Below, one piece after another: positions 4,791-59,131 of a stretch of DNA of 64,000 bases. The notes under the pieces are model-generated. The model made no database searches. It saw nothing but the letters and a program-made list of their open reading frames with translations, and was not told the origin of the DNA. Numbering within the stretch: the first letter of the stretch is position 1; each line of letters begins with the position of its first letter. Made by a program: the position numbers and the translations under genes. Origin of the DNA: Schmidtea nova (taxonomy: Eukaryota); assembly GCA_044892505.1 (NCBI GenBank), contig CM097882.1, positions 12,462,001 through 12,526,000 of the forward strand. Reading direction: 5' to 3'.

Positions 4791-4987
4791 ATTAATATCA
4801 GTAATTCCCATAATAGTAAGACTATAGTTCAAAATTATTTTTTTTAACAACTACACAATATTTCGGTACAGCCTTTATCAAGTGTGTATTTCGAACCTTA
4901 ATAAAGGATGTGCCGAAATATTGTGTACTTGTTTAAAAAAATAAATTTCATATTTAGTCTTACGTTATAGGAATTATTGATATTAAT
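4791..4987. mobile_element. Palindromic (foldback) MITE-like element, copy 1
   Basis: ~200-bp imperfect palindrome (acacaatatttcggtacag...tgtgccgaaatattgtgt). A related copy is at 49281-49480. Confidence 0.75.
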
Positions 4988-5456: not shown

Positions 5457-6585
5457 TCGTTGGCATTATTTGTAAAATTTTATCTCTCTTACTCATCACA
5501 CTTTAATACGAAAATTATTTTGCCCTTCTCCTGTCGCAACAAATAAATATAGATAGAAGTGTCAATTGATGGCTCAATTGATAGACTCATGAGAGAACAT
5601 ATGAAATCTTGATGACTTATGCATTCGATATGGCATTATCACTCTACATTTTAATGTTTCGTATTCGTTGTTATAACTCATAGATCTTTGTCTACAGGGT
5701 TCTAAACATATTTTCTTCAAAAGAATATGTGAAAGCATTGGCATATGGGGTTCCCAACTTCTCCTTAGAGTGACGTCTGTTCAAGGCTTTCAAGGCGTTC
5801 ATGCAACATAATGTTATAAATTTTGGCATCGGTATATTTATTTAAGTAAAATAAAATAAAGTTTTAATTAAATATGATCCAAAGTAATCAGTCAAAAGAA
5901 ATCTAGGAAAAGATTTGTAATAATGTTGGGTTAGTAAAAATGACAATAAGGCTGAAAAAATTAGACAATAATACAAACAATTAAATAATTAACTAGGAAG
6001 AGAAATTATAAAATAAAATAAAAACTGAAATAGCATAGAATTGAGAAAATAATGCTAATTAAAACAAAATGATGAAAACAATATAGTTCTTGCAATGGAG
6101 CTCACCTGTCGATTTGCAGTCGGCTGTCATTCACAATATCAACGTAAATAAATAGGGTATTTACAGGTGCATGAATAGTAAGATTTTTATGTGCGTGTTG
6201 TGACCCTAGAGCGAAAGGGAACTCAGAGGAAAGATAAGCATCTGTATATTTTGACAACACGACCAACAATAATTTATTTTTTCTGCAAAAATTTGATACA
6301 TTAAATTGTGTCGATATATCTTATGCAAGTTTTATTGGCAGACTGATTTCGAGTTTATTTGGTTTTCGTCAGTACCATTGGTCAATTTCGAGTATAAAAA
6401 GTAAGCATATATTAGATGATAATTTATATGTTGGATTTTAGCATCAATGCAAAAATAATATTTCTTAATTAAAATGCTGGTGTGTTGGTTCGATGGACAA
6501 CTGAGATCATTTAGATGTTAAACGTTAGGGTGATCTCGCCAACATAAAAAACATTCCCCCGCTGACACCCATGATGTATCCCTAA

Positions 6586-6813
6586 CTACTCATCATGTTG
6601 GTGCAGTGTCAACGTTGTGAAATGACAAGGCAGGTGAGCAACCTTGCGGCTACTATTCCCTTGTTTATTCACGGGTCCACCACTACCGATAGAAGGTGTT
6701 TGTGGATTTCTTTCGGTCCCAATTATACGCTCTCTTATTGTCCTAGGGTGAATCAATTTTAGAGTGCCTACAATCTCAAATGAATCAGGTTTTACCTTAC
6801 ATTTAATTTCCAA
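6586..6813 (-). CDS. LTR-encoded 75-aa ORF of unknown function
   Basis: Identical translation in both LTRs (copy at 33310-33537); short, no motif. Confidence 0.3.
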   Translation of the reverse strand: MEIKCKVKPDSFEIVGTLKLIHPRTIRERIIGTERNPQTPSIGSGGPVNKQGNSSRKVAHLPCHFTTLTLHQHDE

Positions 6814-6857
6814 TCATACTTCAAGAAAACAAATCAAGTCATTTCATGAGAATACAT

Positions 6858-7421
6858 TTATTTACAATTTAACAAAACCGATGGTCGGATTACGTTCAAT
6901 AGTTCATGCTCGGAGAGTCCACTGAGCAGATCGACCTCAATGCCCAGGCGTTCGGCATAGGCTCGACGCTCTTGACGTTTCTTTGCTCCGAGGCGGTTCC
7001 GACGCTTTGTCCTCTGGGATCCCTTCGGAGTTATCGTTATCGACTCAGTAGTCGTTGTTGCGGTTGTCTCCGTTTCAGTTTGAGTACTGGTGGTGACTGC
7101 TATTGTTTTTACCCACTTATCGAATGTACTCGCCCTGATCCTTGTGCGTAACTGTTCCGTGATGAATTCTTGCGTCGAGGCCTTTAGGTAATTTGCCAAT
7201 TCCAATTTCAACGCTGCGACTTCTCTTGCCTGCTCTTCGGCTGCTTGATCTGCGCGATATCTCGCCTGTAGGATGGTCTTGACCCTCTCGGGGTTGAACC
7301 ATGTCGTTTTCACCCGTTGGTGTTCTTCGCTTAACTGACGTAAGCGACTCTCGAGGACTCTGGAACGGGCCTTGTGCTCGCGAGCCTCCTGTTTATAATT
7401 CCGTGTATCCTCAGCTTTCAT
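6858..7421 (-). CDS. LTR-encoded coiled-coil protein (187 aa)
   Basis: ATG-initiated, heptad-rich N-half and basic C-terminus. The 5' LTR copy (33582-34145) has TGG>TGA at 33837-33839. Confidence 0.55.
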   Translation of the reverse strand: MKAEDTRNYKQEAREHKARSRVLESRLRQLSEEHQRVKTTWFNPERVKTILQARYRADQAAEEQAREVAALKLELANYLKASTQEFITEQLRTRIRASTFDKWVKTIAVTTSTQTETETTATTTTESITITPKGSQRTKRRNRLGAKKRQERRAYAERLGIEVDLLSGLSEHELLNVIRPSVLLNCK

Positions 7422-7630
7422 GTCTAGAAAATCGGGTATTAATTTATGTCACGACAACCGTTTGTTTATCTATCCTTGTCTCTGTGTTAACACAATTATT
7501 CCTGATTCATACACTCATCCGCATGCATTCGTATATCAGAACAATAAATGTGCACTAAAACAAACAGATTTTATTTTTACAACAGGGTGTCATTAGTTTG
7601 ATCTTCGAGTTGATGGCCCTGGCCTATCCT

Positions 7631-8305
7631 TTACTGCAGGAACGATCGTAATTCTTGATCTGCGGGATTATCATCTCGTCGGATCCCGTTTGCGTGATAT
7701 AGCTCCGGGGATGGGTGCCAGCTCAGCTTGCCTTGGTGTATTAACACCTCCCACAAGCGGAGATCCTTGGGTTCCGGATGGCGATCCAACGTGACACTTC
7801 CGGGAGCGTTCGAATAGGATTGGACTTCCCCAGTGTCGCTACACCGAGGCCTGTCCAGCAGCAGGTATCCAAGATGATATAGCGATTGACCAGTCATCGC
7901 TTCCGAGCTTAACAACCATCGTGGCTGTCCGGATTCATCCAGGAATTGATAGAACCACTGTGTGGGTTTCTGTTCCGAAGGGCTCGAAGATGACGTCCAA
8001 TTTGCGTCTCCCTCCCATCGGAATTGTATTCGGAACGCGCAGGCTGGGACGTTAGCGGCCACGTTCATGTGCCGTCGCATCCATCGACGCAGATGTCGGT
8101 GCGCTAGCTCGGCGATTGGCCGTGGGGCGTCCTTCTCCCCTTGAATTTCGGTCATATATCTGTGATTGGCGACAGATCGGACCTGCCGTTTCCTTCGAGC
8201 GAGACGACTCTCCTTTGTCGCGGGCGGCGAGACCAATGGCGGATTCGAGAGTTTTTCGTGTTTCATACCTTCTTTCTGAATGAGATGATGCTTGATTTTA
8301 TTCAT
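7631..8305 (-). CDS. LTR-encoded 224-aa protein of unknown function
   Basis: ATG-initiated, GC-richer than its flanks, open in both LTRs (copy at 34354-35028). Basic NLS-like RLARRKRQ and a Trp-rich C-half. Confidence 0.65.
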   Translation of the reverse strand: MNKIKHHLIQKEGMKHEKLSNPPLVSPPATKESRLARRKRQVRSVANHRYMTEIQGEKDAPRPIAELAHRHLRRWMRRHMNVAANVPACAFRIQFRWEGDANWTSSSSPSEQKPTQWFYQFLDESGQPRWLLSSEAMTGQSLYHLGYLLLDRPRCSDTGEVQSYSNAPGSVTLDRHPEPKDLRLWEVLIHQGKLSWHPSPELYHANGIRRDDNPADQELRSFLQ

Positions 8306-9763
8306 CCATCATTAATTTTTATCGGTTATATATACTTAGTCAACTTCGTGAGTAGCAATTGGTTTTAAGTAGGCCTCACCCGTCCGGTGAGTTGGTTGCA
8401 TTCAGAATGACGAGCGATGTATGTAGGACGGTAGGTTGGTAGATCATACTCAGTTGAGTTGGTTTTAACTCCGCTTGTAAACTCAATTTATTAAATCGCG
8501 CATCAGCACATCACGGCTTACGATATTATTCTTATGTTTATTTTAACAGACATTCTCCGTTATTCACCATTCATCTCATCAATAACTACCAATGACCATC
8601 ATTCTCTGGGTGATTTGGGTGATTCCCTAAAATTGGGTTCATTATTTAGCATATTTCCATTTCATGTTCGAATGTGTGTTTATTCATAATGCTTAGCGTT
8701 GGTTAAATGCGCTTTATACCATACGCTGTTGATTTATCGTTTCACCGCCTATTATACGCACTACAATTATCCCTGTTGGAATCATGGTTTATATAAGGTT
8801 ATAGACACCCCATGTGCACACACCCCCTTCCCGATTACCAAATAGTTAGAAAACTTATAGTCCCGCCGCATCGGTACCTCATATAAGAATATGTTGTACC
8901 GAGAGGCCAAGAATCCGCCAGGCTGTTAGGCCTCCGGAAAAGTCCTTATTGATTTTAATATGAATAATAATTATGAGGGTTTAAGCTAATAATATAGAAC
9001 ACAACTCGAATTTACCTTTTATTTCCACTTCCAAGTTGTTTACAAGGTTCAATTGTCAAATTCACACTCAGTAATTTGGTAAAATTTTAACGACTTACAC
9101 TTGGTAAAACAATAATGACATTCCCAATACTGATTTGACTTCAGTATATATACTCATTTGGTGTTGTTGGTCAGCCAATCAGCATCGAGTATGTGTGTCT
9201 GTCTGGTCATTCTTTTGTGTTTGTCGGCTTTTTGCTGTCTAATTTAACTCAATGATTTGTTTGTTTAATCATGCGGTAAGTTTATTTTGGTATGATTTAA
9301 TTTTAATTTTATTTTTGTTTCAGGTCTTCGGTGATGTCCGCCTACCTGTTGTCATTTTCAGATTTTATCTGATTCGCATGGGTGAGTTTTTAAGATTTAT
9401 GTTATTCTGATTAATGCTTTATTTCTTTTAGATGTTACCGCTTATTTGCTACCTTTTGGTGTTTGTAATTTATTTTGTTGTTATTTTTGTATATTTATTT
9501 TATTGATTGTGTATTATTTTTCAGATGCTGCTCGATTCGGCTGGCCCAACATCACTCGGGGTCCCCTAAAATTGCGTCCCGCAATTACATGCATATACCT
9601 ACATCAACATACTTAAAAAGTTCGTGACAGAATTTACATTCCGAACCACATAAGGTGGTAGCTTTTATACACATTCATACAAAGTCACGCATTGTCATTG
9701 TCATGTTTATATTGTTTATGGTTTATACACAGTTCAATGTTTCTGGCTCATAAGGGTCGATTT

Positions 9764-10288
9764 TCAGGTCCTTTCACTGATTGACTGCATTTCGTATCGG
9801 GCTTGAATTTGTCGCAGATGGCTTCTCGTTCTTTGTTGGGTTTTTGCTTCTCTTCTGGCGCATCTACACATTATCGTTTGTTGTTGTTTGAGGCTTCTGA
9901 TTCGATATAGGGTATAGGTAATCACTAGGATCAAGATGATTGTCAATATTGTCATTGTGACTATTCCGACGATGATCCATCTGTTTGGGATTTCGGATTC
10001 GATTTGGGTTTGACCTTTGATTGGCTTTAGCTGATCTTGAAATGTTCTATGGATTTCTCGGATCTTCTCGATTTGATTGAATAAGGTTTGTAAGGGTTTG
10101 CGATGATCATGGCTGATTCGCGTTTGCCGGATTAATTGTTTCAAGTCTTCTCTGACTTCGTTTAGTTGGTTCTCGATCTTTTGGGATATCTCGTTGGACA
10201 GGGTTCTTTGGATTTCGGTTGTCGAAAGGTTCATGATTATATTAGTTAACATAATAGCTAGGATTGGTAGGGTTTTGAGCCAGTTCAT
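9764..10288 (-). CDS. Accessory type-I-like membrane protein (signal peptide, coiled coil, TM helix), 174 aa
   Basis: N-terminal MNWLKTLPILAIMLTNIIMNLS, heptad repeats, TM WIIVGIVTMTILTIILILVITYTLY, basic tail. Confidence 0.75.
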   Translation of the reverse strand: MNWLKTLPILAIMLTNIIMNLSTTEIQRTLSNEISQKIENQLNEVREDLKQLIRQTRISHDHRKPLQTLFNQIEKIREIHRTFQDQLKPIKGQTQIESEIPNRWIIVGIVTMTILTIILILVITYTLYRIRSLKQQQTIMCRCARREAKTQQRTRSHLRQIQARYEMQSISERT

Positions 10289-10361
10289 TTCTGATTATTC
10301 TACTGATTAATACATGTTACGTCGATTTGTACATTTTTACACTCGGATTTTTCGCCTCTTT

Positions 10362-11093
10362 TTACACATCCGTTTCCTCTGGTTCATGGAACCCTTCATC
10401 TTGGAGCTCTATTGGTGGTAGTGGTATAAACGGTAACCACACCACTCTGCTTCTCCACATTGCAATTTCATCTTGATACGTTCGAGAGATTTGTATCTCT
10501 TCATCTAACAGATACTCCATATAATCTGATTGTTCGCTCAGAGTTTCGATTTGTCTTTCCATTTCTTCCACTTTTCTCTTCAGGGCTTCTACTTCTGTTG
10601 GTTCGGTTTCTACTTCTATGGTTTCTTTCTCTGCTTTCAGGGTTATTATTTGTTCTTTCAGCTCCTCGTTTTCTTTCGTCAAATTCGTTATGTTTTCCTC
10701 ATAAGCTCGGTTTGATTCCCCATGTCTTTCCTTCACTGCTTTCAACTCTATTTTCTTTTGGGTCAACACCCCTTGATAACCATTTACATCTCTTTCCAGA
10801 CTTTCTTTTTCCCTGATCAACTTTTGTCTTTCCGCTTCCTCTTTCTGTCTGATACCTCGCATTTCTCCATTTATCATCTGTATTTGCCATTGCGTTTTCT
10901 TTAATTCCTTTGCCTGTTCTCGAATAAATCGCTGCCGTTTTCGACTCCATTCTTTGTTTGTCTGTTCTTGTCGTTTTCTCTGTTCCAATTCCTCTTTCAA
11001 TTCGTCTATCTCTTGATACAGTTTCCAATCTTCGCTGTATGCTGTCTTTCTGATTAACTCTTTGGCTTCTTTATATACTCGTTTCGACTCCAT
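10362..11093 (-). CDS. Accessory coiled-coil protein, 243 aa, ending ...EPEETDV
   Basis: Long E/K/Q-rich heptad ORF with the same purine-rich coding bias as pol. Confidence 0.7.
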   Translation of the reverse strand: MESKRVYKEAKELIRKTAYSEDWKLYQEIDELKEELEQRKRQEQTNKEWSRKRQRFIREQAKELKKTQWQIQMINGEMRGIRQKEEAERQKLIREKESLERDVNGYQGVLTQKKIELKAVKERHGESNRAYEENITNLTKENEELKEQIITLKAEKETIEVETEPTEVEALKRKVEEMERQIETLSEQSDYMEYLLDEEIQISRTYQDEIAMWRSRVVWLPFIPLPPIELQDEGFHEPEETDV

Positions 11094-11122
11094 CTTCCAA
11101 TGTCTCGCTTGAGCTTTGATCG

Positions 11123-11521
11123 CTAGTATTTTATCTCCATCTTTTCCTCTTGTTTCTCCCTCTCTTCCCTTCGCGTTTTCATCAAGTTTTTGTAATGTTC
11201 CGCTTGTTTTCTCATCAACTGATAGGTCTCTTCTATCTTCTGTCGACTTCGTGAATTCGTTCCTTTTAGCTTCTCTATTTGTGTTGTCAGTTGTACTATC
11301 TCCTTATTTGCTTCCTCGAGTTCTAATTGATATAACTCCATTCGTCTCTCGCATTTTAGTTTCTCGTAGAAATTGTTTGTCATCACTTCGTGTAGTTCTC
11401 TGTTTTTTTGTTCCACTTCCACTTTACATCTCCTTTCGATTTCTCTTTCTATTGCTTCTCGTTCGTTCGACATCTCGCTTCTAGTTTCCTCTTCGATTAC
11501 ATGTTCGTTTACGTTTTCCAT
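11123..11521 (-). CDS. Accessory coiled-coil protein, 132 aa
   Basis: ATG-initiated E/K/R-rich heptad ORF in the accessory cluster. Confidence 0.6.
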   Translation of the reverse strand: MENVNEHVIEEETRSEMSNEREAIEREIERRCKVEVEQKNRELHEVMTNNFYEKLKCERRMELYQLELEEANKEIVQLTTQIEKLKGTNSRSRQKIEETYQLMRKQAEHYKNLMKTRREEREKQEEKMEIKY

Positions 11522-11645: not shown

Positions 11646-13022
11646 TCACTGCTGTACTTGCTTTCTTTTCGATTTCCAACTCCACGTATAGGTTGTCGTC
11701 GTACAACATTTCCCACTTTTTTGGTGTGGTATGAATTTTGGTTCTCCTGTCACTATTGAACATTCGGTGGTTGGTCTTTTGTAAGCTTCGTGCTTACCAT
11801 CGATTTTGAATATTCTCACAATCGTTTCTTTAGAGTTTTTGACCCTCATTATCGCCTTTGTCTCTAGCGGCCATTCTAATATGTCGTCGTAACCACCTTT
11901 ACACAACGCAAAGAATAATGACACATGCGTTTCCTTTCCTGGTCCATCTCCATTTGGATAAATTCTCATCCGAACTTTGTATCCGTTTTTCCACAGATAG
12001 AATGGTGGACTTGTTACCGACACTTGTCCTCCTGTTTTTGCTGTTGTGAACTTGTCGTTGAAGTTCTTGATTTTCCATACATATGGTGCAACCGGTAAAT
12101 TCTCGATATCCTCTGTATCTCGCATCCATATTTGATGTCGTACATTTACTTCTTTTACTAACGTCTCAATGACTTTGATTTTCTCCATCATTTTCTCTCT
12201 GGTGAGCTCAAATTGCTCTCTCGTTTCTAGTAACAGCTCCGTCATTATTCTCTGAGATTCGATTTCTTTTCCCAGCTTCTGTATGGTTTGCTCCATTTCG
12301 TTCAAATTTTCTGTTAGCATCACTGCGTGTTGTACCGTTTCAGTTTCCAAATGCTGTTTCATCTCTTTACTCGTTTTCTTTACTACGCATCCTTGTTTGT
12401 TCCATACGCACTTTCTTGGTCTTGACTCGCATTGTTCCCAATGTTCTCTCAACCTCACCTCTTCTCCGGCTCCACAATTACTTGGACAAATTCCTCTAAA
12501 TTTTCCGCACACTTTCTCTTCTGCTACATTGAGACGTTCTGTTTCGATTACTTCTCTCACTTCTTTTTGTTCACAGTATTGACATTCTATTATCTCTGCT
12601 TTGCACTCGTCCTTGTGATTTTTCAACTGCTTGATGGTTATCGTCTGTTGACACTTTTCACATATCGCTTTCTTATTTTCGCATTTCTCCAGATGTTGTC
12701 TTAGCTCGATTATTTGTTCTTTCCATTCGCATGGTTGGTTTATACACTCGGTTTTTATCTTCCAGATCTCCTTTTGTATTGCTTTGTCTGGTTTCGTCTC
12801 GTTGATTAGTAGTTTATCGTCACACTCTGGACACTTTCTTGTCTCACTTTCGCTCATTATTTGCAATATACATTTGGTGCACATCCTGCATCCACATTCC
12901 GTTTGTCTCGGTTTTAACAGTAAATTTTTACACTTTACACACGTCACATTTACTCCCCATTGTCGATTTTCTCCTCTTAGAATTTCGATTGTTTGGTAAT
13001 CTGCTTCGTTTTCTGCTCTCAT
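11646..13022 (-). CDS. TRAF-family protein (RING, TRAF zinc fingers, coiled coil, MATH/TRAF-C); frameshift in the last ~25 codons
   Basis: RING CVKC...ECGCRMCTKC...CPEC; Zn fingers CINQPCEW...HLEKC; MATH YVWKIKNF...SPPFY...GYKVRMRIYPNGDGPGKETHVSLFF...YDDILEWP. The alternative frame near 11720 gives KWEMLYDDNLYVELEI, the expected MATH end. Confidence 0.92.
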   Translation of the reverse strand: MRAENEADYQTIEILRGENRQWGVNVTCVKCKNLLLKPRQTECGCRMCTKCILQIMSESETRKCPECDDKLLINETKPDKAIQKEIWKIKTECINQPCEWKEQIIELRQHLEKCENKKAICEKCQQTITIKQLKNHKDECKAEIIECQYCEQKEVREVIETERLNVAEEKVCGKFRGICPSNCGAGEEVRLREHWEQCESRPRKCVWNKQGCVVKKTSKEMKQHLETETVQHAVMLTENLNEMEQTIQKLGKEIESQRIMTELLLETREQFELTREKMMEKIKVIETLVKEVNVRHQIWMRDTEDIENLPVAPYVWKIKNFNDKFTTAKTGGQVSVTSPPFYLWKNGYKVRMRIYPNGDGPGKETHVSLFFALCKGGYDDILEWPLETKAIMRVKNSKETIVRIFKIDGKHEAYKRPTTECSIVTGEPKFIPHQKSGKCCTTTTYTWSWKSKRKQVQQ

Positions 13023-13110
13023 TCTACAACAATATTTACATCAATCTCCCCATATTTTGATTTTTCTGGTTCTTTATTTACACGTATTTACACAATTTTC
13101 CGCTTATTCA

Positions 13111-13461
13111 CTATACATCCTCAGTTGAATCCGGCTCTGGATACACGTCTATCTCATTTACAATCCAGCTCGTCCAACTATCTGGTATCTCTTCCTCTTC
13201 ATGTCTCGTTAATCGGTCAATTTCCTCTGCTTGCCAGTTGATCATTTCATTTAATGTTCGGTTCTCGTTCTGTAATTCGTTTATCTGTATTTGTTGGATC
13301 TCGATTTTGTTCATTGCTTCAAAATTACAGTTATAACTTTCGGTTAGTAATTGCGTTTTGGCCGTCAACTGGCTCTGTAATTCGTTTATTGTTCTGGCTA
13401 GCAGGTCACATTGCACTTTCCATCTGGTCGTCATTGACATCTCTGTGGTTTCTTGGTTCAT
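13111..13461 (-). CDS. Accessory coiled-coil protein, 116 aa, ending ...PEPDSTEDV
   Basis: ATG-initiated heptad-rich ORF. Confidence 0.6.
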   Translation of the reverse strand: MNQETTEMSMTTRWKVQCDLLARTINELQSQLTAKTQLLTESYNCNFEAMNKIEIQQIQINELQNENRTLNEMINWQAEEIDRLTRHEEEEIPDSWTSWIVNEIDVYPEPDSTEDV

Positions 13462-13584: not shown

Positions 13585-15521
13585 CTATACAACTATCACT
13601 GGTTTTCCTTCGTACAGTTCCTCGTCCTCGATCTGTACCCACATCTCTTCGTGTTTTGACCGTCTTTTCAGCTCTTCTCGCACTGCTTTTGGTAGTTTTA
13701 TGTTGTAATTCGTGACCTTTACGTCCGGCCATTTTACTGCTATGGTCTTGTTTCTCATGCCATATCTCCAACAGACTATCATGATCGTTATCAGTGGTAT
13801 ACACGCTATGAATACCCCCATACTGATTAAACCCATTATCGTTTTTCCAATGCTCATTCTTGGAGTCTCGCTTTGGTTTATCATTACGCCATATTGACCT
13901 TTCCATTCTGCTTCCCATTGTTCGTATTGTTGTTGTCTCCGTCTGACTTCTTCGATCACTTTCTCTGGTTCCCATTTTTCTTGTCGACTCGATGTTGCTT
14001 CTTCCGTCTCTGTTTGTTCTCTCTTCTGACTCAATTCCCGAAATTCTAACTTTCTGATTCTCCTCGTTATCGTTATGTTCCTTGGCGTGTAATAGGTTTC
14101 GCACTTTTCTTGTTGATTTCCTTGTGTATCCACTTCTTCAATTGCACACACTTCGTATTCTGCATTCGTTTTTAACTTCTTCATCTCCACCTCAATTATT
14201 TCTCCTTTGTCATTTGATGTCTTTTGACAGTTTCGTGGTGACTTTCCCACATTGTTTGGCATCAATTTCCAACAGATTTCTAGGACCTTTTTATGGATCT
14301 TCCATATTATCAGAGTTGTTAACTCTGGTTCGTTTTCTATCGTCGTCTTTTCTGTTGTTGCCTGTTGAGTCCTCTGAGTAATGGTTGTCGTGGTCCTTTT
14401 TGATTTTCTTTTCCTCTGTTGACTTCTTCCCATTTCGATCGTTCTTGTTCCGTTAATTTGCTCTGGCGTCTTGTACAGTTTGCACTCCAGGCTTCTTTGT
14501 ATTATTTATCTTATTCTTCGAATTACGCAAATTTCATATGCTTGTCCGACTTCGAATCCATTTAATTTAAACGGGATTCCTCGTTCTCTCGTTCTGCATT
14601 GCGGTATTATGTGACTGGTCGATACTCCGATGTATTTTCTCCAACACATTCCGATTGTTCTCCGACCGATGTTCTTTATTTCCACTGTTATTACTTCATT
14701 CGCAATTGTTTCTTGGTTTGTTTCTTTCTTTTTGGGAACTCGATTATCTCCTTTGCTTGGAACACTTTACACTCGCTTGTTCTTGGTCTGTTTCCGTTTG
14801 CTGCTTTTTCCATGAGACATAGTTCACTCATTTTATCTGTCTCTATTTCTGTTATTTCGATTTCTTCATTTGTCTCTGCTTCTCGACTTTCTCTTGTTTC
14901 GCTGATTCCAATTACCTCATTGTTTCGTCCCCAACATCTTCCATTCGTTGTTCGTTGGTCTTGGATGTTTACTAACGTCATCACGCTGATATCTATGTCC
15001 TCCATGATTCTCTTAATGAGGATTAATATTAATGCTACACATATTAATTCTGGTTGGAATGTTAATTTGCCCGCTGGGTTTTTGGTTGTTCTTTCTTTCT
15101 CTGTTCGGTTTCTGATTCCCTCTTCTGCTTCGGTTTGATTCTTCCCTTTCTCCAATTCCACTTCTTTTCTTCTCGTTGTCTCTTCGCTTCTTTTCCCAAT
15201 CCATTTCTGTATCTTCAGCGCTTCTGTTGCTTTGTATAATTGACATGCAGTTACTTGAGGTGCTTTTGGTTCTCCTCTCTGCTTTATTGCGCATATTATG
15301 TATGATTTTTCTTTCTCCAATCCTTTGATTTGGATGACGTCTCGCTTCAAATCTGACAATATACACTTCAGCGTATCGTTTTTCTTCATATTCTCTTTCC
15401 AGCATATTCTTTCGTATACTTCATTTCCTCTGATTATCTCTAGCGTGACGTATTGTTTCTTGGCTTCACCTTGTCCGATGATTGTTATCAATATCGCAAT
15501 ACACAACATTTCTGGTCTCAA
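13585..15521 (-). pseudogene. Frameshifted accessory membrane protein(s) with ~4 FN3-like repeats, signal peptide and C-terminal TM helix
   Basis: Signal MLCIAILITIIGQGEA (ATG 15509). Repeats of pattern C-W-x(20-30)-[IL]xGL/KKL-x(4)-YxxC: RICWK..IQIKGLEKEKSYIIC; GMCWRK..FKLNGFEVGQAYEIC (in a frame not listed in the track, ~14510-14700); EICWK..EMKKLKTNAEYEVC. TM IMGLISMGVFIACIPLITIMIVCW. Confidence 0.6.
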
Positions 15522-15596
15522 AAGTAGACTTCCTGTTCGTTTTCCATAGTTCGCATGTTCGTCTTTTGTTCCACTGTTTTCTCGTTCTTCGGCTTC

Positions 15597-16610
15597 TCAT
15601 TCCTTGTCGTTTCTCGTTAGCTTCGGTTCTTCTTGTCTTTCTTTTTCATTATCCTTTGTTCTTTTGTTGTCGTTGTCTTTGTTGTTTTTTTCATTGTTAC
15701 TTTTGTCGTCGAAATCTCTGTAACCACCCCCTGGTCCTTTCGAAATGTCGTCCTCGACATTAATTTCTTCAATCAGTCTTTCATACGCCTGAACAGCGAG
15801 TGTGCTAGACTCGAATTCTCGTATCTCCATATCCTTGGATGGTTCTATGTCTTCTAGTCTACTTTGCTTGATCGTTTCTTTGGCCTTTGCCCACTCATTC
15901 ACATATTTTCGGAATAAGTCTTTCCATCTTCCCATTTGTTCCTGTTCCTTTGGGTTGTTCGTGAATTTCAAATCTCTTCTCTTTAGGAATTCTTCTACTA
16001 TCTCTGGCTTTCTGTGTCTTAGTAACGCGCTTTTGATACACCAATTCTGATTCTGTTCCATATGGTCATTAATCTTGAACACTGGTTCCTTGGTGATCGG
16101 AATCACCCATGTTAGTAATGCTCTCGTTTTCTCTATGTCGTGTATCATTACAGTTAGACTGAAGTTCTTTACGTTATTCGCCAGATATTCGATATCCTCT
16201 TGTTTATTGATGGACTTTATGAACTTGATCATCTCAAAGTTGTTCCACTGTATTGCGATATCTATGATGGAATTATTCTTTCCATTTTTCCCTTCGATTT
16301 TCGCTCCTGCTTCGTATAATTCATTTAGCACTTTGCAGTTCGTCTTCTTCCTTGCTGCGATTATCATGATTGTATCTCCATTATCGTCAACCGTATTCAT
16401 GTCTGCTTCGCACTTGACCATCGCTTTCGTTATTTCTAGCACTTTGTTTTCTTTCTTTCGACGTAATACCCAGTGTATCGGTATTCTCTCATCCTTTGAT
16501 AGTAGGAATGCTACTGGCATTTGATTTTTGATCGTTTCTATGTCGTTCTCGTTATAATCTCCTTGTGCGCATTTGTGCACTTTCTCTGTAATTGCTCCTA
16601 ATATCTCCAA
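15597..16610 (-). CDS. Ankyrin-repeat protein/domain 2
   Basis: DERIPIHWVL, ADMNTVDDNGDTIMIIAARK, GAKIEGKNGKNNSIIDIAIQWNNFEMIKFI. In frame with the upstream ANK ORF across one TGA (16638-16640). Confidence 0.85.
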   Translation of the reverse strand: MEILGAITEKVHKCAQGDYNENDIETIKNQMPVAFLLSKDERIPIHWVLRRKKENKVLEITKAMVKCEADMNTVDDNGDTIMIIAARKKTNCKVLNELYEAGAKIEGKNGKNNSIIDIAIQWNNFEMIKFIKSINKQEDIEYLANNVKNFSLTVMIHDIEKTRALLTWVIPITKEPVFKINDHMEQNQNWCIKSALLRHRKPEIVEEFLKRRDLKFTNNPKEQEQMGRWKDLFRKYVNEWAKAKETIKQSRLEDIEPSKDMEIREFESSTLAVQAYERLIEEINVEDDISKGPGGGYRDFDDKSNNEKNNKDNDNKRTKDNEKERQEEPKLTRNDKE

Positions 16611-16637
16611 CGAATTTTTGTTCTCCTTGAATTCCGA

Positions 16638-17870
16638 TCATTTTTCCTGTGCTTTTGCTACGATTGCGTCTAATCTCTCTTGATAATCAGCTTTTGCATT
16701 GGACAACACTGCTTTGCTTCTTATTCGTGTTTGCATCTGTTTCATCCGTTGGTCTTGATACACTGCTTGTCTGAAGAATTGTCCATATTTCAGTGCTTCT
16801 ATCAGATCTTTATATCGCTTGCTTATTTCTTTTTGCTGCTTTTGGATGTCATAGAAATGTTCGAAGCTCATGTCCGGATTCCATTGCTTATCACACCATT
16901 TCTTGATTAATTCGAATAATTCTTTCTTTCTGTCTTCCAACTTGTATTCTCTTGGGTTTTCGCTAACCCGTAACGTATCTCTCGCTATTAACACTGCAAG
17001 TGTTTTTGGATCGTATGTTACTTCTAATAGATGTTTCAGTAACGCATTTTCTCCTCTTGTGAACACTTCATTACAATCTACGACCCACGAATCTCCTTCT
17101 GGTCGTTTCCACTTTAGCAATATTTTCCAGGTTTTACTGTTCTTTACCTCGATTGCTTGTTTCATGATCGATCCTCTAGTTAGTTCATCGATTTCCCACG
17201 TGGCATTCTCCGTAATATACTTTAGTATTCGGTGATTTGCTCTATCAATTGCATGATTCAAGAATGTTCGTCCTTCTTTTTCTTTTGTCATCCAATTCGA
17301 TCTGGTGTTTCCGAATAGCTTGATTATTTCATCATCTCTTCCATGAATTGTCATCATCATGAGTGGAGTAATTCCTTCCCAATTCACTTTGTCAATTTCT
17401 CCTCCACCTTCGAGTATCATCTCCACAATCTCTTTTACTTTTTCGTTTCCACTGTGCTTGATTGCATTGTGCAACGCTGTGTTACCGTCTTTATCCTGTA
17501 GATTCAATGTTTGAGGGATTTCTTCCAGTAACGTTCTTATAATTGGATGTGCTGTTCTATCCTTCGCATACTCCATTACATTCTTTCGAACTTCTGTTAG
17601 TATATTGAAATCGTGCCACCATTTCCATTCTGGTATAATTTCTCTGGTCCTCTTTGCCAGTTCTTTGATATCCGTTGCTTTTCTCCGGTTGTCTTCTAGA
17701 CTTATTTGCGGCTTTTGTTGTACTCGTAACATACTGATTCTCGCCGTCTGTGATCTTGTCATTACCCGTTTCTCTGGTGATAGAGTTGCTGTCTTTGGTA
17801 CTTTTCTGCATCGACATGCATTCACGTATATTGGTCTTACCAATGGATTGTTCACCAATCGTACTCGCAC
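16638..17870 (-). CDS. Integrase GPY/F tail continuing into ankyrin-repeat domain 1
   Basis: NLQDKDGNTALHNAI, GGEIDKVNWEGITPLMM, KEGRTFLNHAI. In frame with integrase across one TAG (17928-17930), with KGPYEI between. Confidence 0.85.
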   Translation of the reverse strand: MRVRLVNNPLVRPIYVNACRCRKVPKTATLSPEKRVMTRSQTARISMLRVQQKPQISLEDNRRKATDIKELAKRTREIIPEWKWWHDFNILTEVRKNVMEYAKDRTAHPIIRTLLEEIPQTLNLQDKDGNTALHNAIKHSGNEKVKEIVEMILEGGGEIDKVNWEGITPLMMMTIHGRDDEIIKLFGNTRSNWMTKEKEGRTFLNHAIDRANHRILKYITENATWEIDELTRGSIMKQAIEVKNSKTWKILLKWKRPEGDSWVVDCNEVFTRGENALLKHLLEVTYDPKTLAVLIARDTLRVSENPREYKLEDRKKELFELIKKWCDKQWNPDMSFEHFYDIQKQQKEISKRYKDLIEALKYGQFFRQAVYQDQRMKQMQTRIRSKAVLSNAKADYQERLDAIVAKAQEK

Positions 17871-17927
17871 ATTATTTTCATTTACTGTTGTTATTTCGTA
17901 TGGCCCTTTGCCTGGTCGTTGGAGTTT

Positions 17928-19067
17928 CTAGACCGTACCGGGTATTATCTCTGGTGTCTCGATTATCACCCAATTTCCAACTTTTAAATCATGTGCTTTC
18001 ACGTTCTTTTTCTGATCATGTAGATCCTTGTAACTCTCTTGATAGAACTTGATGTTTAGTTCCGCCGTTTTCCAGATTTCCTGCATTCTTTCTTTGAACT
18101 TTGTAACGTAATCGTCAACCTCCATGTACTGTGATATTGGTGGTTGGTATTCTAAATCTATCGGTAGGTTGCAATCTCTTCCGTACATCAGTTGGAATGG
18201 ACTTAGCTTTGTTGCCGCATGTATTGACATTCTATAGGCCATTAAACACAAGTTTATATATTCATCCCAATCAGTCTGATGTTTACTGACGTAATTTGAC
18301 AACATGCGTATCAATGTCCCATTGAACCTTTCTGTTTGACCGTTCGTTTGTGGATGGTATGGGGATGTTCGTAATTTCGCAATTCGGAAGTAATTCGTAA
18401 CTTCGTCTAATATTTCACTCATGAAATTTGTTCCTTGATCCGTTAGGATTTTCTTGGGTGTTCCGTATCTGCAGCATATCTCTTCCACCAATATTCTCGC
18501 GACTGTTTTCGCCTTTTGATCCGGTATTGCGAATGCTTCTGGGAACTTTGTTAGATAGTCCGTGACTACTAATATATACTGATTCCCTTTTAAACTTTCC
18601 GGCAATGGCCCAACTACGTCCATTGCTATCGTCGCCATCGGTTCTGCAGGTATTGGCATAGGTTTTAGTGGTGTTTTCCACTTCGTTCCGACGTTCTTTC
18701 TTGTTGCGCAGGTTAAGCAGGTTTTTATCCATTCCTTCACATCATCTTCCATGGTTGGCCAAAAATACTTTTGTCTCAGTCTTCCGATTGTCTTTTTCGC
18801 TGACATATGTCCGCCTAATTTTCCGTCGTGATATTGTGTCATAATTTCCTTTCGTCTGTTCGCAGGTAAGCACATCAATCTTCGTTCCCCATCTTGTATC
18901 AATAACCATCCTTTTTCCATCACGTATCGGTGTTGATATTTTTGCATATGATCGCGTAACGCTTGGTTCTTACCGAATATTTCCATTTCCCTTTCTTTCA
19001 AATACTTGCTGATCAATCCCAACTCCTCGTCTTCGAGTTGATCTTTCCTTAGTTCGCTGAAATCCAA
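17928..19067 (-). CDS. pol: Retroviral-type integrase of the giant element
   Basis: HDGKLGGH...CLTC zinc finger; IAMDVVGP, ILTDQGTNF and TNGQTERFN form the DDE triad. Confidence 0.97.
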   Translation of the reverse strand: MDFSELRKDQLEDEELGLISKYLKEREMEIFGKNQALRDHMQKYQHRYVMEKGWLLIQDGERRLMCLPANRRKEIMTQYHDGKLGGHMSAKKTIGRLRQKYFWPTMEDDVKEWIKTCLTCATRKNVGTKWKTPLKPMPIPAEPMATIAMDVVGPLPESLKGNQYILVVTDYLTKFPEAFAIPDQKAKTVARILVEEICCRYGTPKKILTDQGTNFMSEILDEVTNYFRIAKLRTSPYHPQTNGQTERFNGTLIRMLSNYVSKHQTDWDEYINLCLMAYRMSIHAATKLSPFQLMYGRDCNLPIDLEYQPPISQYMEVDDYVTKFKERMQEIWKTAELNIKFYQESYKDLHDQKKNVKAHDLKVGNWVIIETPEIIPGTV

Positions 19068-19134
19068 GTCCTCCGCTATTAATACACATATTTTTTGGAG
19101 CGTTCAGGTTCATCAATTCTGGAAATGTAAATCT

Positions 19135-19692
19135 TGACATGCAATCTGCGTTTGCATTTGCTTTTCCTGCTTTAACCTTTATGAATGGCGAGTATTCCTG
19201 TAACTGCATTGCCCAACGCATCAATCTACTTGATGATTCTTTATGTTGGCCTAACCATACCAATGGTTGATGATCCGTCGTGATATATATTTCATGACCC
19301 CACAATAGGTATTTGAAATGTTTGAGTGCCAATATTATCGCATAGGCTTCTCTTTCGGTGACTGAGTAATTCTTTTCATGCTTCCTGAATGTTCGACTGT
19401 AATATCCAATTACCCTCTCTTTACCTTCTTCATCGAATTGGCCTAGCACTGCTCCTGCTGCATATCCATTTGCATCTGTTGCCAACAAAAATGGCTTCTT
19501 AAAATCTGGATGGACTAATATTGGTGCTGTAATCAGTTTATCTCGTAATGTCTCGAATGCTGCTTGTTATTCTTCTCCCCATACAAACGACACATCTTGT
19601 CTTACTAGTTCTTGCATTGGCTTCGATATTCCTGCATAGTCCTTGATAAACTTTCGATAATATCCACACAATCCCAAAAATTCTTGTATTCC
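19135..19692 (-). pseudogene. pol: RT thumb/connection and Ty3/gypsy RNase H
   Basis: QEFLGLCGYYRKFI...WGEE*QAAFETL...LATDANGYAAGAVL...NYSVTEREAYAI...TDHQPL...NADCMSR. TAA at 19567-19569; frameshift to IN near 19110. Confidence 0.92.
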
Positions 19693-20519
19693 ATACGTTC
19701 GAGAGATTTGTATCTCTTCATCTAACAGATACTCCATATAATCTGATTGTTCGCTCAGAGTTTCGATTTGTCTTTCCATTTCTTCCACTTTTCTCTTCAG
19801 GGCTTCTACTTCTGTTGGTTCGGTTTCTACTTCTATGGTTTCTTTCTCTGCTTTCAGGGTTATTATTTGTTCTTTCAGCTCCTCGTTTTCTTTCGTCAAA
19901 TTCGTTATGTTTTCCTCATAAGCTCGGTTTGATTCCCCATGTCTTTCCTTCACTGCTTTCAACTCTATTTTCTTTTGGGTCAACACCCCTTGATAACCAT
20001 TTACATCTCTTTCCAGACTTTCTTTTTCCCTGATCAACTTTTGTCTTTCCGCTTCCTCTTTCTGTCTGATACCTCGCATTTCTCCATTTATCATCTGTAT
20101 TTGCCATTGCGTTTTCTTTAGTTCCTTTGCCTGTTCTCGAATAAATCGCTGCCGTTTTCGACTCCATTCTTTGTTTGTCTGTTCTTGTCGTTTTCTCTGT
20201 TCCAATTCCTCTTTCAATTCGTCTATCTCTTGATACAGTTTCCAATCTTCGCTGTATGCTGTCTTTCTGATTAACTCTTTGGCTTCTTTATATACTCGTT
20301 TCGACTCCATCTTCCAATGTCTCGCTTGATCTTTGATCGCTAGTATTTTATCTCCATCTTTTCCTCTTGTTTCTCCCTCTCTTCCCTTCGCGTTTTCATC
20401 AAGTTTTTGTAATGTTCCGCTTGTTTTCTCATCAACTGATAGGTCTCTTCTATCTTCTGTCGACTTCGTGAATTCGTTCCTTTTAGCTTCTCTATTTGTG
20501 TTGTCAGTTGTACTATCTC
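19693..20519 (-). repeat. 827-bp near-identical copy of 10476-11302 replacing part of RT
   Basis: Same length and sequence as 10476-11302 with only two differences noticed. It sits between YIDD and GIQEFLGL, where ~65 RT codons are missing. Confidence 0.93.
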
Positions 20520-20529
20520 AATGTACTAG

Positions 20530-21815
20530 ATCAATAAATCGTCGATATACACCATTCATTGCTTTATGCCATGTGTTACGAAATTCATGCATCTCTGGAA
20601 TGATGCTGGCGCGTTTGTTAACCCAAACGGCATTTTCTTGAATTGGTACAGATCTCTTCCGATTGTGAATGCTGTCTTTTCTTTATCCTCGTCTTTCATT
20701 TTGATCTGCCAATATCCGCTTTTTAAATCTAGTGACGTGAAATAGGCTGCTCCTTGTAGCGTCAACAACATTTCGTTTATATCTGGCAGTGGGTACGTAT
20801 CTCTTTTCGTAACTGCATTCAATCGTCTGTAATCGATACAGAATCTCTGAGATCCATCCTTCTTTTTCACCATCACCACTGGGAATTGCCAGGGTGAGCA
20901 ACTAGGTTCGATGACCTTTGCGTCTAACATCTTTTGTACCTCTTCTTCTGCCAATGCTTTTTGAGCTTCTGCCAGTTTGTATGGTCGTAATGCGATTGGC
21001 GTTTCGTCCGTCAACGGTATCGTGTGTAATGTTACATCGCATGTTCCTAAATCCAAATCTGATGCTGCGAATATGTCTTTATATTCCATCAATAGTTTCT
21101 GTAGCTGTTCTTTTTGTCGTTCGTCTAACAACACACTGTTGATTTTCCATGGAAATTCGTCACTGCTTTTCTCATTCTTGTCTGGTATCTCGATTTCGGA
21201 CATGGGTGTCAATTTACCCAATCTTTCATTTTTATATATTATTTTGTCCTCTTCGTCGACATTTACCAGATTAATTGGTATCTCACCTTCTTGGTTTATT
21301 GTGACTAATTCTCTTGCCATTGGAAATTCTTTTTTTGCTTCGAACTTCTTACTGGGTTCGAATATCATATCTCCCTTTATTGTCGAATCGATCTTGACAT
21401 AGCACATCATTTCATGTCTCGCTGGTACTACTATTTGTTCCGCACTTGCCACTTTAACTTTCATTCTGCAGATTTTCCCTGTTCTGTCTTTTAGTTTCAT
21501 TGCTCCTAGATCGATTACGATTTCCTTGAACAGGTCTGGCATCAGGTCAGTTCCAATAATACATGGTACACTCATCGATGGTATTACAGCGATGTACGTG
21601 TTAATTTCTGCCTTTCGTTGTTTAATTTTTACAAACCATCTTCCGGCTATTTCTACTGTCTCTTGACTGCACGCGATTACATGAACATTCGTCTTCTCGA
21701 TTTCTCCTTGGTTTTTCTCTGGTATATAGTTGATATCGATTGCCGAAATATTCGCGCCTGTATCGATCGTAGCTTCGATTTCTCTTCCGTTTATTTCTAT
21801 GGTTGTTGTTAAAAT
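20530..21815 (-). CDS. pol: Aspartic protease and reverse transcriptase (N-terminal two-thirds) of the giant element
   Basis: IEATIDTGANISAI; RPYK, SPWQFPVVMVKKKDGSQRFCIDYRRLN, DLKSGYWQI, KMPFGLTNAPASFQR. YIDD at 20538-20549 just after an in-frame TGA. Confidence 0.97.
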
Positions 21816-22329
21816 CGGTCCCATATTTGTGGACATAACTGCTATCGTGTGCGTGTCTTCCAACGAGTCTGCGCTTCTAACTCGTTTTACTTTGCATCCT
21901 TCGGGAATTATCGGGTATATACTTGTCATCGGCATCATCTGCATCATATTCGGCTTTGTTTTGTATATCGGTTCGTTGTACATTGACTGAGGTGGAGCGC
22001 TGTATCTCCAATTCTCAACTGCACTCTTTTCTGTATACTGTGGAATCTGGTTTACATTTGCTTGTCCTCCTTGATCGTCATCGTCATCGTCATCATTGCT
22101 TGAATCATCTTGTGTTCGATATCCCCTCACTCTTTCCCATAATCCTTTCCTTTCTTTCTTTAGTTGTCGTCTTGCTTGCTCATCTTGCATTATCTTTTTG
22201 AATTTCCTTCCGACATCTTCATTTGTTCCTTTCATTTTTGCAAGTATTTTCAACAATCTCTTTATTCGATGTATGTCTTTTGAGTTTCCGTGCAACACCA
22301 TTGTTTTCGCAAGAAATGGTAAAAACTCT

Positions 22330-24195
22330 ACCACCATCTTCCAATTCACTTTCTTTTCTCTCTTGTAGATATCAAAACACGCTAACATTTGCGTTATTAT
22401 CACTCTGACGATTTTTATTATCAATATAACACCCAGTATTCCAGCCATCATTTGTCCGAATATCAGGAATCTTCCCCACATTGCTTTCATCATATTTTCC
22501 GTGGCTTTCTTGAAATGTGCCGGTGATAACAGTAGTTCATAATTCGTTCCTCCCGTTATCGTTACGATATTTGACAGTAATGCTTCTCTTCTTGTCGGGA
22601 ATAATATATTCTGTCTTGCTGCTTCCAGATCTTTTGGACTATAGATTCCGTTGTTTGAGACATCTACGTCGCTGAATTGTCTATCCTTCGATAACTGCAT
22701 TAGCTCGAATTCTCTTGGTGCTATTACTTCGGCTCTTGCTAGGAACATTACCCATTTGCCATCTGGCTTCTGATAAAGCGGTCCGGACGCATTACTACAG
22801 TTGAATGGATTTGGTTCAAACCCTGGTGGATTGATGATTCTCGTCACCGGTTGAACGTATCGTACTTTTCCTTTATAATCGATTTCTAATTCGTTTGTGC
22901 ATGTTCCAGGTTTCAACTGCGTTGTTGCTGCTAGCGGCGCGTGTGTCTTTTCACAAATGTATACATACATTGCCTCTCCAACCTCTCTTCCGAAATGTCC
23001 TTCCCTCAGTGGTAATAACGGCATCGCGCTATCTGGATTCGTAATCGCTACGGCCTACTTTGTCTTTAATATCTCTCGGTTCAGTATACAATCGTTATTT
23101 ATCAGATCATAGTACACTTTTTGCAATGAGGCTTGTCCTCTATGGAATAAGAAATCCATTTTATTATTCACATACAAGTGTAGCTTGATATCCATTGTGT
23201 CGATCTTGGGTTTCGCATTCGGCACTTCTTGCTTTGACACGTATATTCCTGGGTAGTTCGTTTCGTATACCGTTGTACTACACTTAAGGGTTGCTTTCCC
23301 TTTTATGAATCTCAATCCCACATCTTGATTTGTGGTTATCAACACTGTTGGTGTGGTTCTCATTTCTATCCGTTTTTCTCTATGATCTCGCTTCAATTGT
23401 CTTTTATTCTCTAAAGCCTCCTTGAGATGCTTTGCTCTAGCTTTGTCATCATCATCTTCTTCCTGGAACGTTTTTCCTTGAATTTCGTCGAACTTTGCTT
23501 CTTGTAGCAGTTGTAATTGACATTCGTTCACTTTCGGTTTATACACCAATGTTGACATTCCCGTTTGACACATGCTCCTGTCAATTTTACACATGGATAA
23601 CGTTTTCATTTCTCCTGTTGTCGGTTCGAAGAATGCTTCGTAGCTTTTCAGTTCGACTATATACGTATCCATCACCACTAAGTTGGTTGCAGGTACTCCG
23701 AATATTGGGTAGGTTTCTCCTTGACAATATCCTTCTCCTCCCGTAATCCGTCCTGCTACATAATACGTCTGCTGTAGCATCATTCCTGGCTTTCCTTTTA
23801 TCTTGATTTTATCTCTTGTTGTTACTTCTCCGTGTTTAAATAATGCTTCGCAGTCTTCTCCTTGCAACACGATTGGTTCTCTTTCCGTTCCTGGCATGAC
23901 AATTGCTGAATAATGTCCTCTCCCACAATAGAATGCAAATCTCGTCTTCTGCACCTTGCATTCATTCACCATTGTCTTTATTAGTTCTGCTTCTTGATAC
24001 ACGTGGTACCATTGTTCCTTTTTAATCTCTTTTAACTCTACTGGAGTTGCATCTTTGCATTGCTCCGTACCTCTCAATGAATACTTTTCTCCTAACTTCA
24101 TTTGATCACAATCAAATACTTCAAATGTTGTTACACCTTCTGTGCTTAACAACCATACTAACATCATCATGATTATCGAGTTAAGATTCAACGTC
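22330..24195 (-). CDS. env: Envelope glycoprotein, chuvirus-like/gB-type, embedded in the pol frame upstream of protease (one in-frame TAG at 23055-23057)
   Basis: Hydrophobic signal SIIMMMLVWLLSTEG; FEVFDC..YSL..EQC, ECKVQKTRFAFYCG, GEAMYVYIC, VQPVTRII, GIYSPKDL..ILFP and WGRFLIFGQMMAGILGV follow the pattern I recall for chuvirus/Pao-associated glycoproteins. Furin-type REKR; C-terminal TM. Confidence 0.82.
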
Positions 24196-25901: not shown

Positions 25902-25904
25902 TTT

Positions 25905-32189: not shown

Positions 32190-32648
32190 TTACAAGTACA
32201 CTGTTATTCTTTCGGATACGGGAAGGTTGCACATAGGACATCGTTCATTTATTTTACATTCATTACAGAATCGAAAATGCCCACATGGCAACAACATTAT
32301 CTGTATCTTATTTATTTCACAGATGTAACACGTCAGATATTGTCTCGTATGTTCTGTTGTTATTCTTATCCACTCATCGTGTTTGGTTGCAATCTGTTGT
32401 TCTAGCCTGTGGCACTCGATATTCATTTCAGGGTTGTTTAATCGCTCTCTATACCACTGATATCGTGTTGCCGTATCCACTAGGTTCTTACTCTCGCTTG
32501 TGCTCATCATCATTTCGGCTCTTTCTGTGTTGTTTGTCGGTTCGTGATATCCTTCTACCTCGAGTCGTCTTAACTTCCTCATTATTGTCTCCACTGTTTC
32601 GTTGTTTGTTTTGAAAAACGTTTGCATTTCTTTTATTTTGTTCTCCAT
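32190..32648 (-). CDS. C-terminal RING-finger (IAP/MDM2-type C3HC4) protein in the 5' leader of the giant element
   Basis: CYICEINKIQIMLLPCGHFRFCNECKINERCPMCNLPVSERITVYL*: RING at the extreme C-terminus with a hydrophobic tail as in IAP/MDM2 RINGs. No BIR recognised. Confidence 0.88.
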   Translation of the reverse strand: MENKIKEMQTFFKTNNETVETIMRKLRRLEVEGYHEPTNNTERAEMMMSTSESKNLVDTATRYQWYRERLNNPEMNIECHRLEQQIATKHDEWIRITTEHTRQYLTCYICEINKIQIMLLPCGHFRFCNECKINERCPMCNLPVSERITVYL

Positions 32649-33174
32649 CCCCTGAATGAATTCTCATTAATTTTGTCGATTTTTATTTATTATTTATTAT
32701 TCCTATTCTATGGTAGCCCTACTGTTCGCTTTTTGTTGTTCTGTTTTGCGTTGTTATTTGCGTATCCCCCCGTGTTCTTGAATGTCGCCCCGACATGATC
32801 ATTGTTAGTTGTTCACACACATATCATTTTCATGCATACCTTTCAAAATACTTTTATATTGCTTCATTCCTACTTTTCATTTCTTTTCCTACTGTTATTC
32901 CACATACTATTCATCATGCTTCATTCATACTCATATTTTCACATTCATACTTTCATTCTCATGTATACTTTTATCACGTTCATCAATCTCATTATTTTAC
33001 ACTCATACCTTTATTTATTATTTTTCAACCCGATTCATTCTTGCTTCAGGACCCTCAAACCCTCTGTTATTCTTTACTTTACTTTTCCTCTCTAAATTCA
33101 ATTTCATCCCGGTTCAGGCGCTCTAAAACTGTCTGCAGATATCGAATTCACTTTTTCCCACAAAGATCGATTTA

Positions 33175-33192: not shown

Positions 33193-33198
33193 AATTTA

Positions 33199-36100: not shown

Positions 36101-36274
36101 ATGGGTGAGTTTTTAAGATTTATGTTATTCTGATTAATGCTTTATTTCTTTTAGATGTTACCGCTTATTTGCTACCTTTTGGTGTTGGTAATTTATTTTG
36201 TTGTTATTTTTGTATATTTATTTTATTGATTGTGCATTATTTTTCAGATGCTGCTCGATTTGGCTGGCCCAACA
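33199..36274 (-). repeat. 5' LTR (3076 bp) of the giant element
   Basis: Direct repeat of 6475-9551; adjacent to the PBS. Confidence 0.95.
35837..35902 (-). promoter_or_regulatory. Candidate LTR promoter (reverse CCAAT 35898-35902, TATATATA 35868-35875, Inr-like TCATT ~35837-35841)
   Basis: Motif order fits a minus-strand Pol II promoter ~430 bp into the LTR; spacing is slightly long. Inference only. Confidence 0.3.
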
Positions 36275-42962: not shown

Positions 42963-43010
42963 TAATGTTACTTGATTTTCTGGAGCCTTTAGAGTTGAAA
43001 AGTTATGTAA

Positions 43011-59122: not shown

Positions 59123-59131
59123 AAATCATGT

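Follow-up and report, generated by a model that had tools for sequence, protein, structure and literature searches.

The closest described systems are the Burro / GYPSM1 elements, in which MATH_TRAF_C, BIR, BCL2-like and ankyrin motifs have already been listed, among them those of a Dugesia tigrina element whose MATH lies in an accessory ORF upstream (PMC6431247). The B-IAP protein of Burro1 is reported to protect stem cells from apoptosis (via PMC13465017). Among viruses, iridoviruses encode TRAFs with a RING-coiled coil-MATH organization (PMC3352826). In planarians, RNAi of traf2-1, which is described as an inhibitor akin to TRAF3, worsens infection-driven tissue loss (PMC4993586), and PIWI proteins degrade host traf-6 mRNAs through piRNAs (PMC11663942). 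The original prediction for the locus described here, a full-length TRAF gene captured by a retroelement, presumed that such cargo had gone unreported. This premise is only partly right: MATH_TRAF_C in Burro has been published (PMC6431247) and iridovirus TRAFs are known (PMC3352826), but the literature searched yielded no description of a full-length TRAF in a retrotransposon; the primary Burro papers (Grohme 2018, Lee 2026), which lie outside the reach of that search, may contain a description of such ORFs.

The window, i.e., the whole stretch of DNA analyzed, comprises 64,000 nucleotides of the Schmidtea nova genome (contig CM097882.1). The TRAF ORF sits inside a 29.8-kb Burro-type Gypsy element located at positions 6475-36274. 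The main parts of this element are given below in the order of its transcription; accA to accF are labels coined in this analysis.

33198-36274, minus strand: 5' LTR, about 3.08 kb
32190-32663, minus strand: 5' accessory ORF with an IAP-type RING (Pfam)
13585-29548, minus strand: polyprotein region, in pieces owing to stops and frameshifts (Pfam)
19693-20519, minus strand: 827-bp copy of accE inside RT, 99.8% identical to 10476-11302
13111-13461, minus strand: accC, a short ORF that is conserved and immediately precedes TRAF in five of five families, dN/dS 0.05
11646-13022, minus strand: TRAF accessory ORF, window copy, 458 aa (the family form has 470 aa)
9764-11521, minus strand: accD/accE (coiled coil) and accF (hydrophobic stretch), accessory ORFs downstream of TRAF
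6475-9551, minus strand: 3' LTR, about 3.08 kb, K2P distance to the 5' LTR 0.013

The two LTRs are 98.7% identical, start with TG and end with CA, and the AAAA on the outer side of both is a weak candidate for a 4-bp TSD. At one LTR end (9300-9540 and 36000-36260, plus strand), GT...AG intron-like blocks were read by eye on the strand opposite to the element. The polyprotein contains gag with a zinc knuckle, a mononegavirus-like fusion protein, protease, RT, RNase H and integrase, followed by two ankyrin clusters and a membrane-anchored tail; its ank2-accA-accB part is a single frame in another locus (L084). The element thus has the features of the Burro type: a size of about 30 kb with multi-kb LTRs, the Gypsy order PR-RT-RH-IN (with RT interrupted in the window copy), an env-like fusion protein between gag and pol (PF24664, E 1e-30 and 1e-27) and a cargo of ankyrins, MATH and RING. 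It is not Burro1 of the S. mediterranea type, since its polyprotein pieces gave no MATH match and no BIR was found in it; nor was a BIR-bearing IAP found in its family. Candidate polyprotein segments compared with Pfam gave no match to BCL2-like or Ubi/SUMO-like motifs. About 70 RT codons are absent where the 827-bp accE copy sits, and because this copy interrupts RT, the pol of the window element is broken. The inserted piece is 93-96% identical to other element copies and is likely a template-switch product.

Elsewhere, the window contains a BEL/Pao element (39238-44895, minus strand), an ordinary Gypsy element (51346-55596, plus strand) and two related fold-back elements (4816-4963 and 49308-49454) with arms of about 70 bp. 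A Polinton-like cluster (57933-63423) encodes an A32-type ATPase, an integrase with a chromodomain and several further ORFs, among them a TBP-like one on the opposite strand (Pfam TBP, E 1e-14); those without a Pfam match may, in our own reading, be capsid genes. Positions 62319-63669 resemble 1245-2302.

The TRAF ORF runs on the minus strand from an ATG at 13022 to a stop codon at 11646-11648, and contains the following domains.

12822-12941, minus strand: RING, residues 28-67, with eight Cys ligands
12327-12746, minus strand: TRAF-type zinc fingers, residues 93-232
12105-12338, minus strand: coiled-coil helix, residues 229-306 as modelled for a full-length copy
11718-12083, minus strand: MATH/TRAF-C domain of the TRAF1/2/3/5 type, in frame to residue 435

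The presence of RING, zinc fingers, coiled coil and MATH in one ORF, as predicted, was confirmed by Pfam, alignment and modelling. Pfam recognized TRAF-mep_MATH with an E value of 5e-24; TRAF3_RING (E 2e-4) and zf-TRAF (E 3e-5) remained under their curated cut-offs, although the RING and zinc-finger ligands align. The MATH domain matches the solved domains of TRAF5, TRAF3, TRAF1 and TRAF2 with E values of about 1e-25 to 5e-27 (phmmer), and matches of this strength show that the TRAF identity is not due to chance. One full-length copy was modelled with AlphaFold from a 13-sequence alignment (mean pLDDT 81, pTM 0.35). The model has a helix at residues 229-306, another at 433-439, and residues 444-452 as the last strand of a MATH sandwich; Foldseek and phmmer group the modelled protein with TRAF1/2/3/5. 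The element protein therefore has the N-terminal RING, TRAF zinc fingers and coiled coil of the TRAF class, and the C-terminal TRAF-type MATH is complete in the 470-aa copies and truncated in the window copy. The window frame departs from that of the family protein after residue 435, through a frameshift near 11717. The earlier view that the gene has only a terminal frameshift is correct as to its position, but the lesion is predicted not to be harmless: because it precedes the modelled strand 444-452, the window copy would lack the last MATH strand and its MATH fold is predicted to be damaged. The TRAF of the window copy is probably non-functional.

A DNA search with the TRAF region gave 715 first-look candidates, of which the best 40 were all 93-100% identical over 1.7 kb. 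TRAF is colinear with element sequence on both sides in 39 of the 39 other scored copies, of which 32 are open for 470 aa, two are near full length and five are truncated; as the scored copies are the best-scoring ones, the intact share is biased upward. In a search with the RING, 93 of 150 among the matches listed share a 476-codon frame (one of them is a host gene). In the reverse test, a TRAF RING was found at most 20 kb downstream in each of the 39 best other integrase matches, and at the usual spacing in 36. The base composition of TRAF is close to that of gag and integrase (A 0.42; third-position A 0.46), whereas host TRAFs have A 0.33-0.38. It had been proposed at the outset that a TRAF present in a single copy, or flanked by its own TSD or poly(A), would speak against capture by the element. 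Many copies were found instead; the flanks are common to 39 of 39, and no run of ten or more A lies within 300 nt downstream of TRAF in any of the 40 copies, so that an independent processed retrocopy is rejected. The TRAF gene is borne by the retroelement, as predicted: it is fixed cargo of the family, in shared context and under purifying selection.

Five element families (A, B, C, E and F) carry a full-length TRAF at the same position. Family A is that of the window; identity to A is 53% for B, 47% for E, 46% for F and 35% for C. In the copies aligned or printed, the order accC-TRAF-accD/E and all eight RING ligands are kept in the five families, and the zinc-finger ligands are all kept as well. 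Family C has a BIR+RING IAP directly behind TRAF. Its copies (L130-L134, L142, L145-L147) are pol-less, with the protease running into the ankyrins, and their LTR-like sequence is about 84% like that of family D. One family C copy (L148:8333-9784 and L087:1-367) is without TRAF and most of the IAP, and has instead a 484-aa ORF of signal-peptide/membrane type with no Pfam match. In family D, MATH is the sole TRAF domain and lies within the polyprotein, in a frame of 4,706 codons. This is the published Burro1 layout; the polyprotein-MATH type is thus present in the same genome (L080-L081). As nothing but MATH was retained in family D, at least one successful family can do without the RING.

The 32 open TRAF copies have a mean dS of 0.20 and a mean dN of 0.019 (ratio 0.096; all dN/dS values given here are pairwise means over related copies and not independent estimates). 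By part, dN/dS is 0.053 for the RING, 0.096 for the zinc fingers, 0.091 for the coiled coil and 0.114 for MATH; for shared variants it is 0.09 and for private ones 0.29. In the same loci, values of 0.025, 0.053, 0.091 and 0.094 were obtained for the integrase C-terminus, accC, ank1 and TRAF, respectively, compared with 0.14-0.25 for the other six element regions and 1.1 and 1.5 for off-frame controls. The element TRAF is kept under purifying selection, from which we infer that it is translated. Such selection means benefit to the element and does not tell which way signalling is affected. A neutral passenger, or an independent retrocopy in the window copy, would fit the frameshift and the broken pol of that copy; this reading is refuted by the context shared by 39 of 39 copies, a dN/dS of 0.09, retention in five families, the element-like base composition and the lack of poly(A) after TRAF, and we give it next to no weight.

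Two features had been taken as marks of an unusual TRAF. The RING of the window copy reads CVKC...CGCRMCTKC...CPEC, and its fourth ligand is indeed Cys45 (codon 12888-12890), within CGCRMC. Cys is able to bind zinc at a RING ligand position, and active C4C4 RINGs exist, such as that of CNOT4. Cys at ligand 4 was found in 11 of the 11 host RINGs read by pattern, one of which has the identical CGCRMC (five other host frames had no match to the RING pattern). Among 155 database relatives, 19 have Cys and 83 have His at this position, and 53 gave no match; the named Cys carriers include Dendrocoelum TRAFs and echinoderm TRAF3-like proteins. Likewise, the host TRAFs that span RING to MATH are single open frames. 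Being common to host TRAFs, neither the Cys nor the single exon points to what had been read from it, a crippled, dominant-negative RING in the first case and retro-capture in the second.

A dominant negative or decoy, in which the element TRAF would join host trimers or occupy receptors without signalling, draws on other observations as well. Family D retains MATH only, a high copy number would favour titration, and the peptide groove has diverged in family A, where the serine run that we take to be part of the ligand-contacting groove of vertebrate TRAFs is replaced (SSSF in P0002 versus HEAY). Because of this replacement, vertebrate-type ligand binding by the family A TRAF is uncertain as judged from its sequence. 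The RING, however, is the most constrained part of the protein (dN/dS 0.053), its Cys is the host state (11/11) and the zinc-finger ligands are all kept across families, so we consider a decoy unlikely. The strong conservation of the RING would equally suit a ubiquitin-ligase adaptor that serves the life cycle of the element, by removal of restriction factors or in particle handling, with little role in death signalling; the element has a second RING ORF, and the neighbours accC and accE are co-conserved with TRAF. This explanation accounts less well for a MATH domain of the receptor-binding TRAF1/2/3/5 class and for the retention of TRAF beside an IAP in the pol-less family C, and we regard it as distinctly unlikely.

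The phylogeny bears on the origin of the gene. A full-length tree was built under LG+G4 from 55 rows, which exclude host L053 and a near-duplicate from each family. It unites families A, B and C in one clade (99/95), with two unnamed database proteins as sister (100/98), and places the element clade on the triclad side of a branch with moderate support (90/95). In a MATH tree of 49 rows, which include 14 full-length-type and nine short host genes among many in the genome, families A, B, C, E and F group with the MATH of family D and with the two unnamed proteins in a single clade (91/97), which was also obtained under a mixture model (97/96). The trees do not fix the position of the root of the element clade within the triclad TRAFs, and the grouping of the element rows could be helped by their shared composition. 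As the TRAFs of five families and the Burro1-type polyprotein MATH form one clade, the trees suggest one old capture from triclad TRAFs, with later N-terminal loss in family D; this would be the simplest reading. The two unnamed proteins, P0035 and P0001, may be Burro cargo of other triclads. Among 1.84 billion representatives, the best matches with a single set of domains are triclad TRAFs. A search with P0035 returned element copies (about 65 of the 93 scored rows are family B, by hand count) and host L055, with no closer host donor among the 93; a word-index search with TRAF gave six matches only.

It had further been suggested that such elements seeded the host TRAF expansions. None of the 14 full-length-type and none of the nine short host genes falls inside the element clade; since a clade of elements and short host MATH genes was not rejected by the AU test (p 0.07), seeding is unsupported rather than excluded. 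Three host TRAFs have element sequence nearby. L055 is some 3.5-5 kb away from the 3' LTR of a copy of family C, on its outer side, L056 lies beside an LTR-like piece in opposite sense, and L139, with a fragment of Burro 3 kb upstream of it, nevertheless groups with host genes; accC/accE neighbours are absent at all three. MATH loci gave 2,419 candidates in the genome, of which 150 were scored. A dense host array at about 405-455 Mb of G000 C2 (L060-L079) consists of MATH genes with short frames, part of them arranged in tandem repeats of 4-5 kb.

Directly upstream of the TRAF ATG lies a putative expression signal.

13023-13045, minus strand: predicted splice-acceptor-like site (A/T tract, TAG, one to three A, then the ATG of TRAF)

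A TAG acceptor-like site 1-3 nt before the TRAF ATG is present in all five families, and 39 of the 40 copies of family A share the same 12 nt ahead of the ATG. Among 583 ATGs in the element, 3% are preceded as YAG-N-ATG, and 22% have a YAG within 0-7 nt. Similar sites precede accC, accD and the 5' RING ORF. At about 90 nt, the spacers are below the 300-bp threshold applied to operons in parasitic flatworms; spliced leaders exist in planarians (PMC12582326). Both cis-splicing from the LTR and trans-splicing would fit the acceptor-like site. Four runs of unknown kind, available as contigs of one study, cover the region throughout; of their 20 joints, the 15 that were listed all lack splice-type ends, which has no bearing on expression.

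On balance, and with slightly better than even confidence, we propose that the full-length TRAF is a fixed, selected cargo of Burro elements, likely captured once from flatworm TRAFs, and likely an intact adaptor that damps stress or death signalling. This is the best explanation of the domain content, position, conservation and shared ancestry observed, from which we infer the remainder. The protein would be made from a separate spliced RNA, with either cis-splicing or trans-splicing to a spliced leader at the acceptor-like site before its ATG. It would trimerise through the coiled coil and MATH, bind receptor or adaptor peptides, and affect TAK1/MKK/p38/JNK signalling in the manner of traf2-1, the planarian inhibitor. 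Damping would work beside the other anti-death cargo of the element, in cells where the element is active. In vertebrates, TRAF2 and TRAF3 cooperate with cIAPs, and family C has its TRAF and IAP genes adjacent to each other; a search for IAP homologues gave no match at E 1e-8. Several observations count against the proposal: the lack of a BIR-bearing IAP in family A, its altered peptide groove, the pro-apoptotic action of the one viral TRAF tested, the moderate support for the branch with triclad TRAFs, the absence of a host donor among the matches scored, and the loss of the RING in family D. A signalling activator that promotes signalling or death in aid of expression or spread, as for ISKNV ORF111L, has in its favour the one viral TRAF for which a test was found, a protein that binds TRADD and triggers apoptosis through caspase-8 (PMC3352826), and the env-like fusion protein encoded by the element. 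It is made very improbable by the IAP-like and reportedly BCL2-like cargo that accompanies the TRAF, and by the little that a germline-resident element would presumably gain from killing the host cell.

The damping adaptor can be extended to a more specific scheme, in which the capture of one whole TRAF, at an early point of triclad history, gave rise to an operon-like accC-TRAF-IAP/accE cassette expressed via spliced-leader trans-splicing. A TRAF-IAP ubiquitin module would then block stress-induced death of stem cells, the Burro1 MATH would be a truncated relic, and regeneration or infection tolerance would partly depend on the cassette. As a whole, this scheme is speculative and rather doubtful.

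A domain match listed for Burro hereby becomes a testable, complete TRAF gene, which is constrained as strongly as the ankyrin cargo and is represented by roughly 90 open copies of one family and by four more families. Because the Burro1 IAP reportedly protects planarian stem cells, a second captured death-signalling gene offers a direct RNAi target on host-transposon mutualism. Moreover, the TRAF/MATH counts in planarian transcriptomes (PMC6109357) may include element-borne copies.

The triclad single-exon TRAF2/3-like genes (TRAF-2, -4 and -5 of Dendrocoelum lacteum, TRAF2-like A of Dugesia japonica, and host loci L050, L054-L056, L058, L069, L085, L138, L139 and L141) have the same architecture, length, single frame and Cys ligand 4 as the element TRAF, at 25-34% identity. 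The element TRAFs differ from them in forming a separate, long-branched clade with A-rich, element-like composition, and the host loci are without the accC/accE neighbours. Vertebrate TRAF2/3/5 (PDB 4gjh, 1kzz, 1ca4, 3knv and 7l3l) share with the element TRAF the sequence and fold of MATH, the layout of RING and zinc fingers, and the conserved RIYxNGDG strand, but have a C3HC4 RING where that of the element is of C4C4 type, and a groove serine run that the element has replaced. The megalocytivirus protein ISKNV ORF111L is likewise a TRAF of host origin, borne by a virus and composed of RING, coiled coil and MATH (PMC3352826); in contrast to the element TRAF, it has 296 aa, belongs to a DNA virus of fish, is closest to fish TRAFs and was pro-apoptotic when tested. 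The two are independent captures. Burro / GYPSM1 (PMC6431247) and the window element are both about 30 kb with long LTRs, and both have gag, an env-like fusion protein between gag and pol, PR-RT-RH-IN, ankyrins and RING cargo. The published MATH_TRAF_C belongs to the polyprotein in Burro1 and to an upstream accessory ORF in the element of Dugesia tigrina, and the accessible part of that account names the MATH domain only, whereas here a whole TRAF occupies a downstream accessory ORF in five families. The published polyprotein-MATH type nevertheless belongs to the same clade as the element TRAFs. New here are the synteny across five families, the common origin of the element TRAFs and the published polyprotein MATH, and the adjacency of TRAF and IAP.
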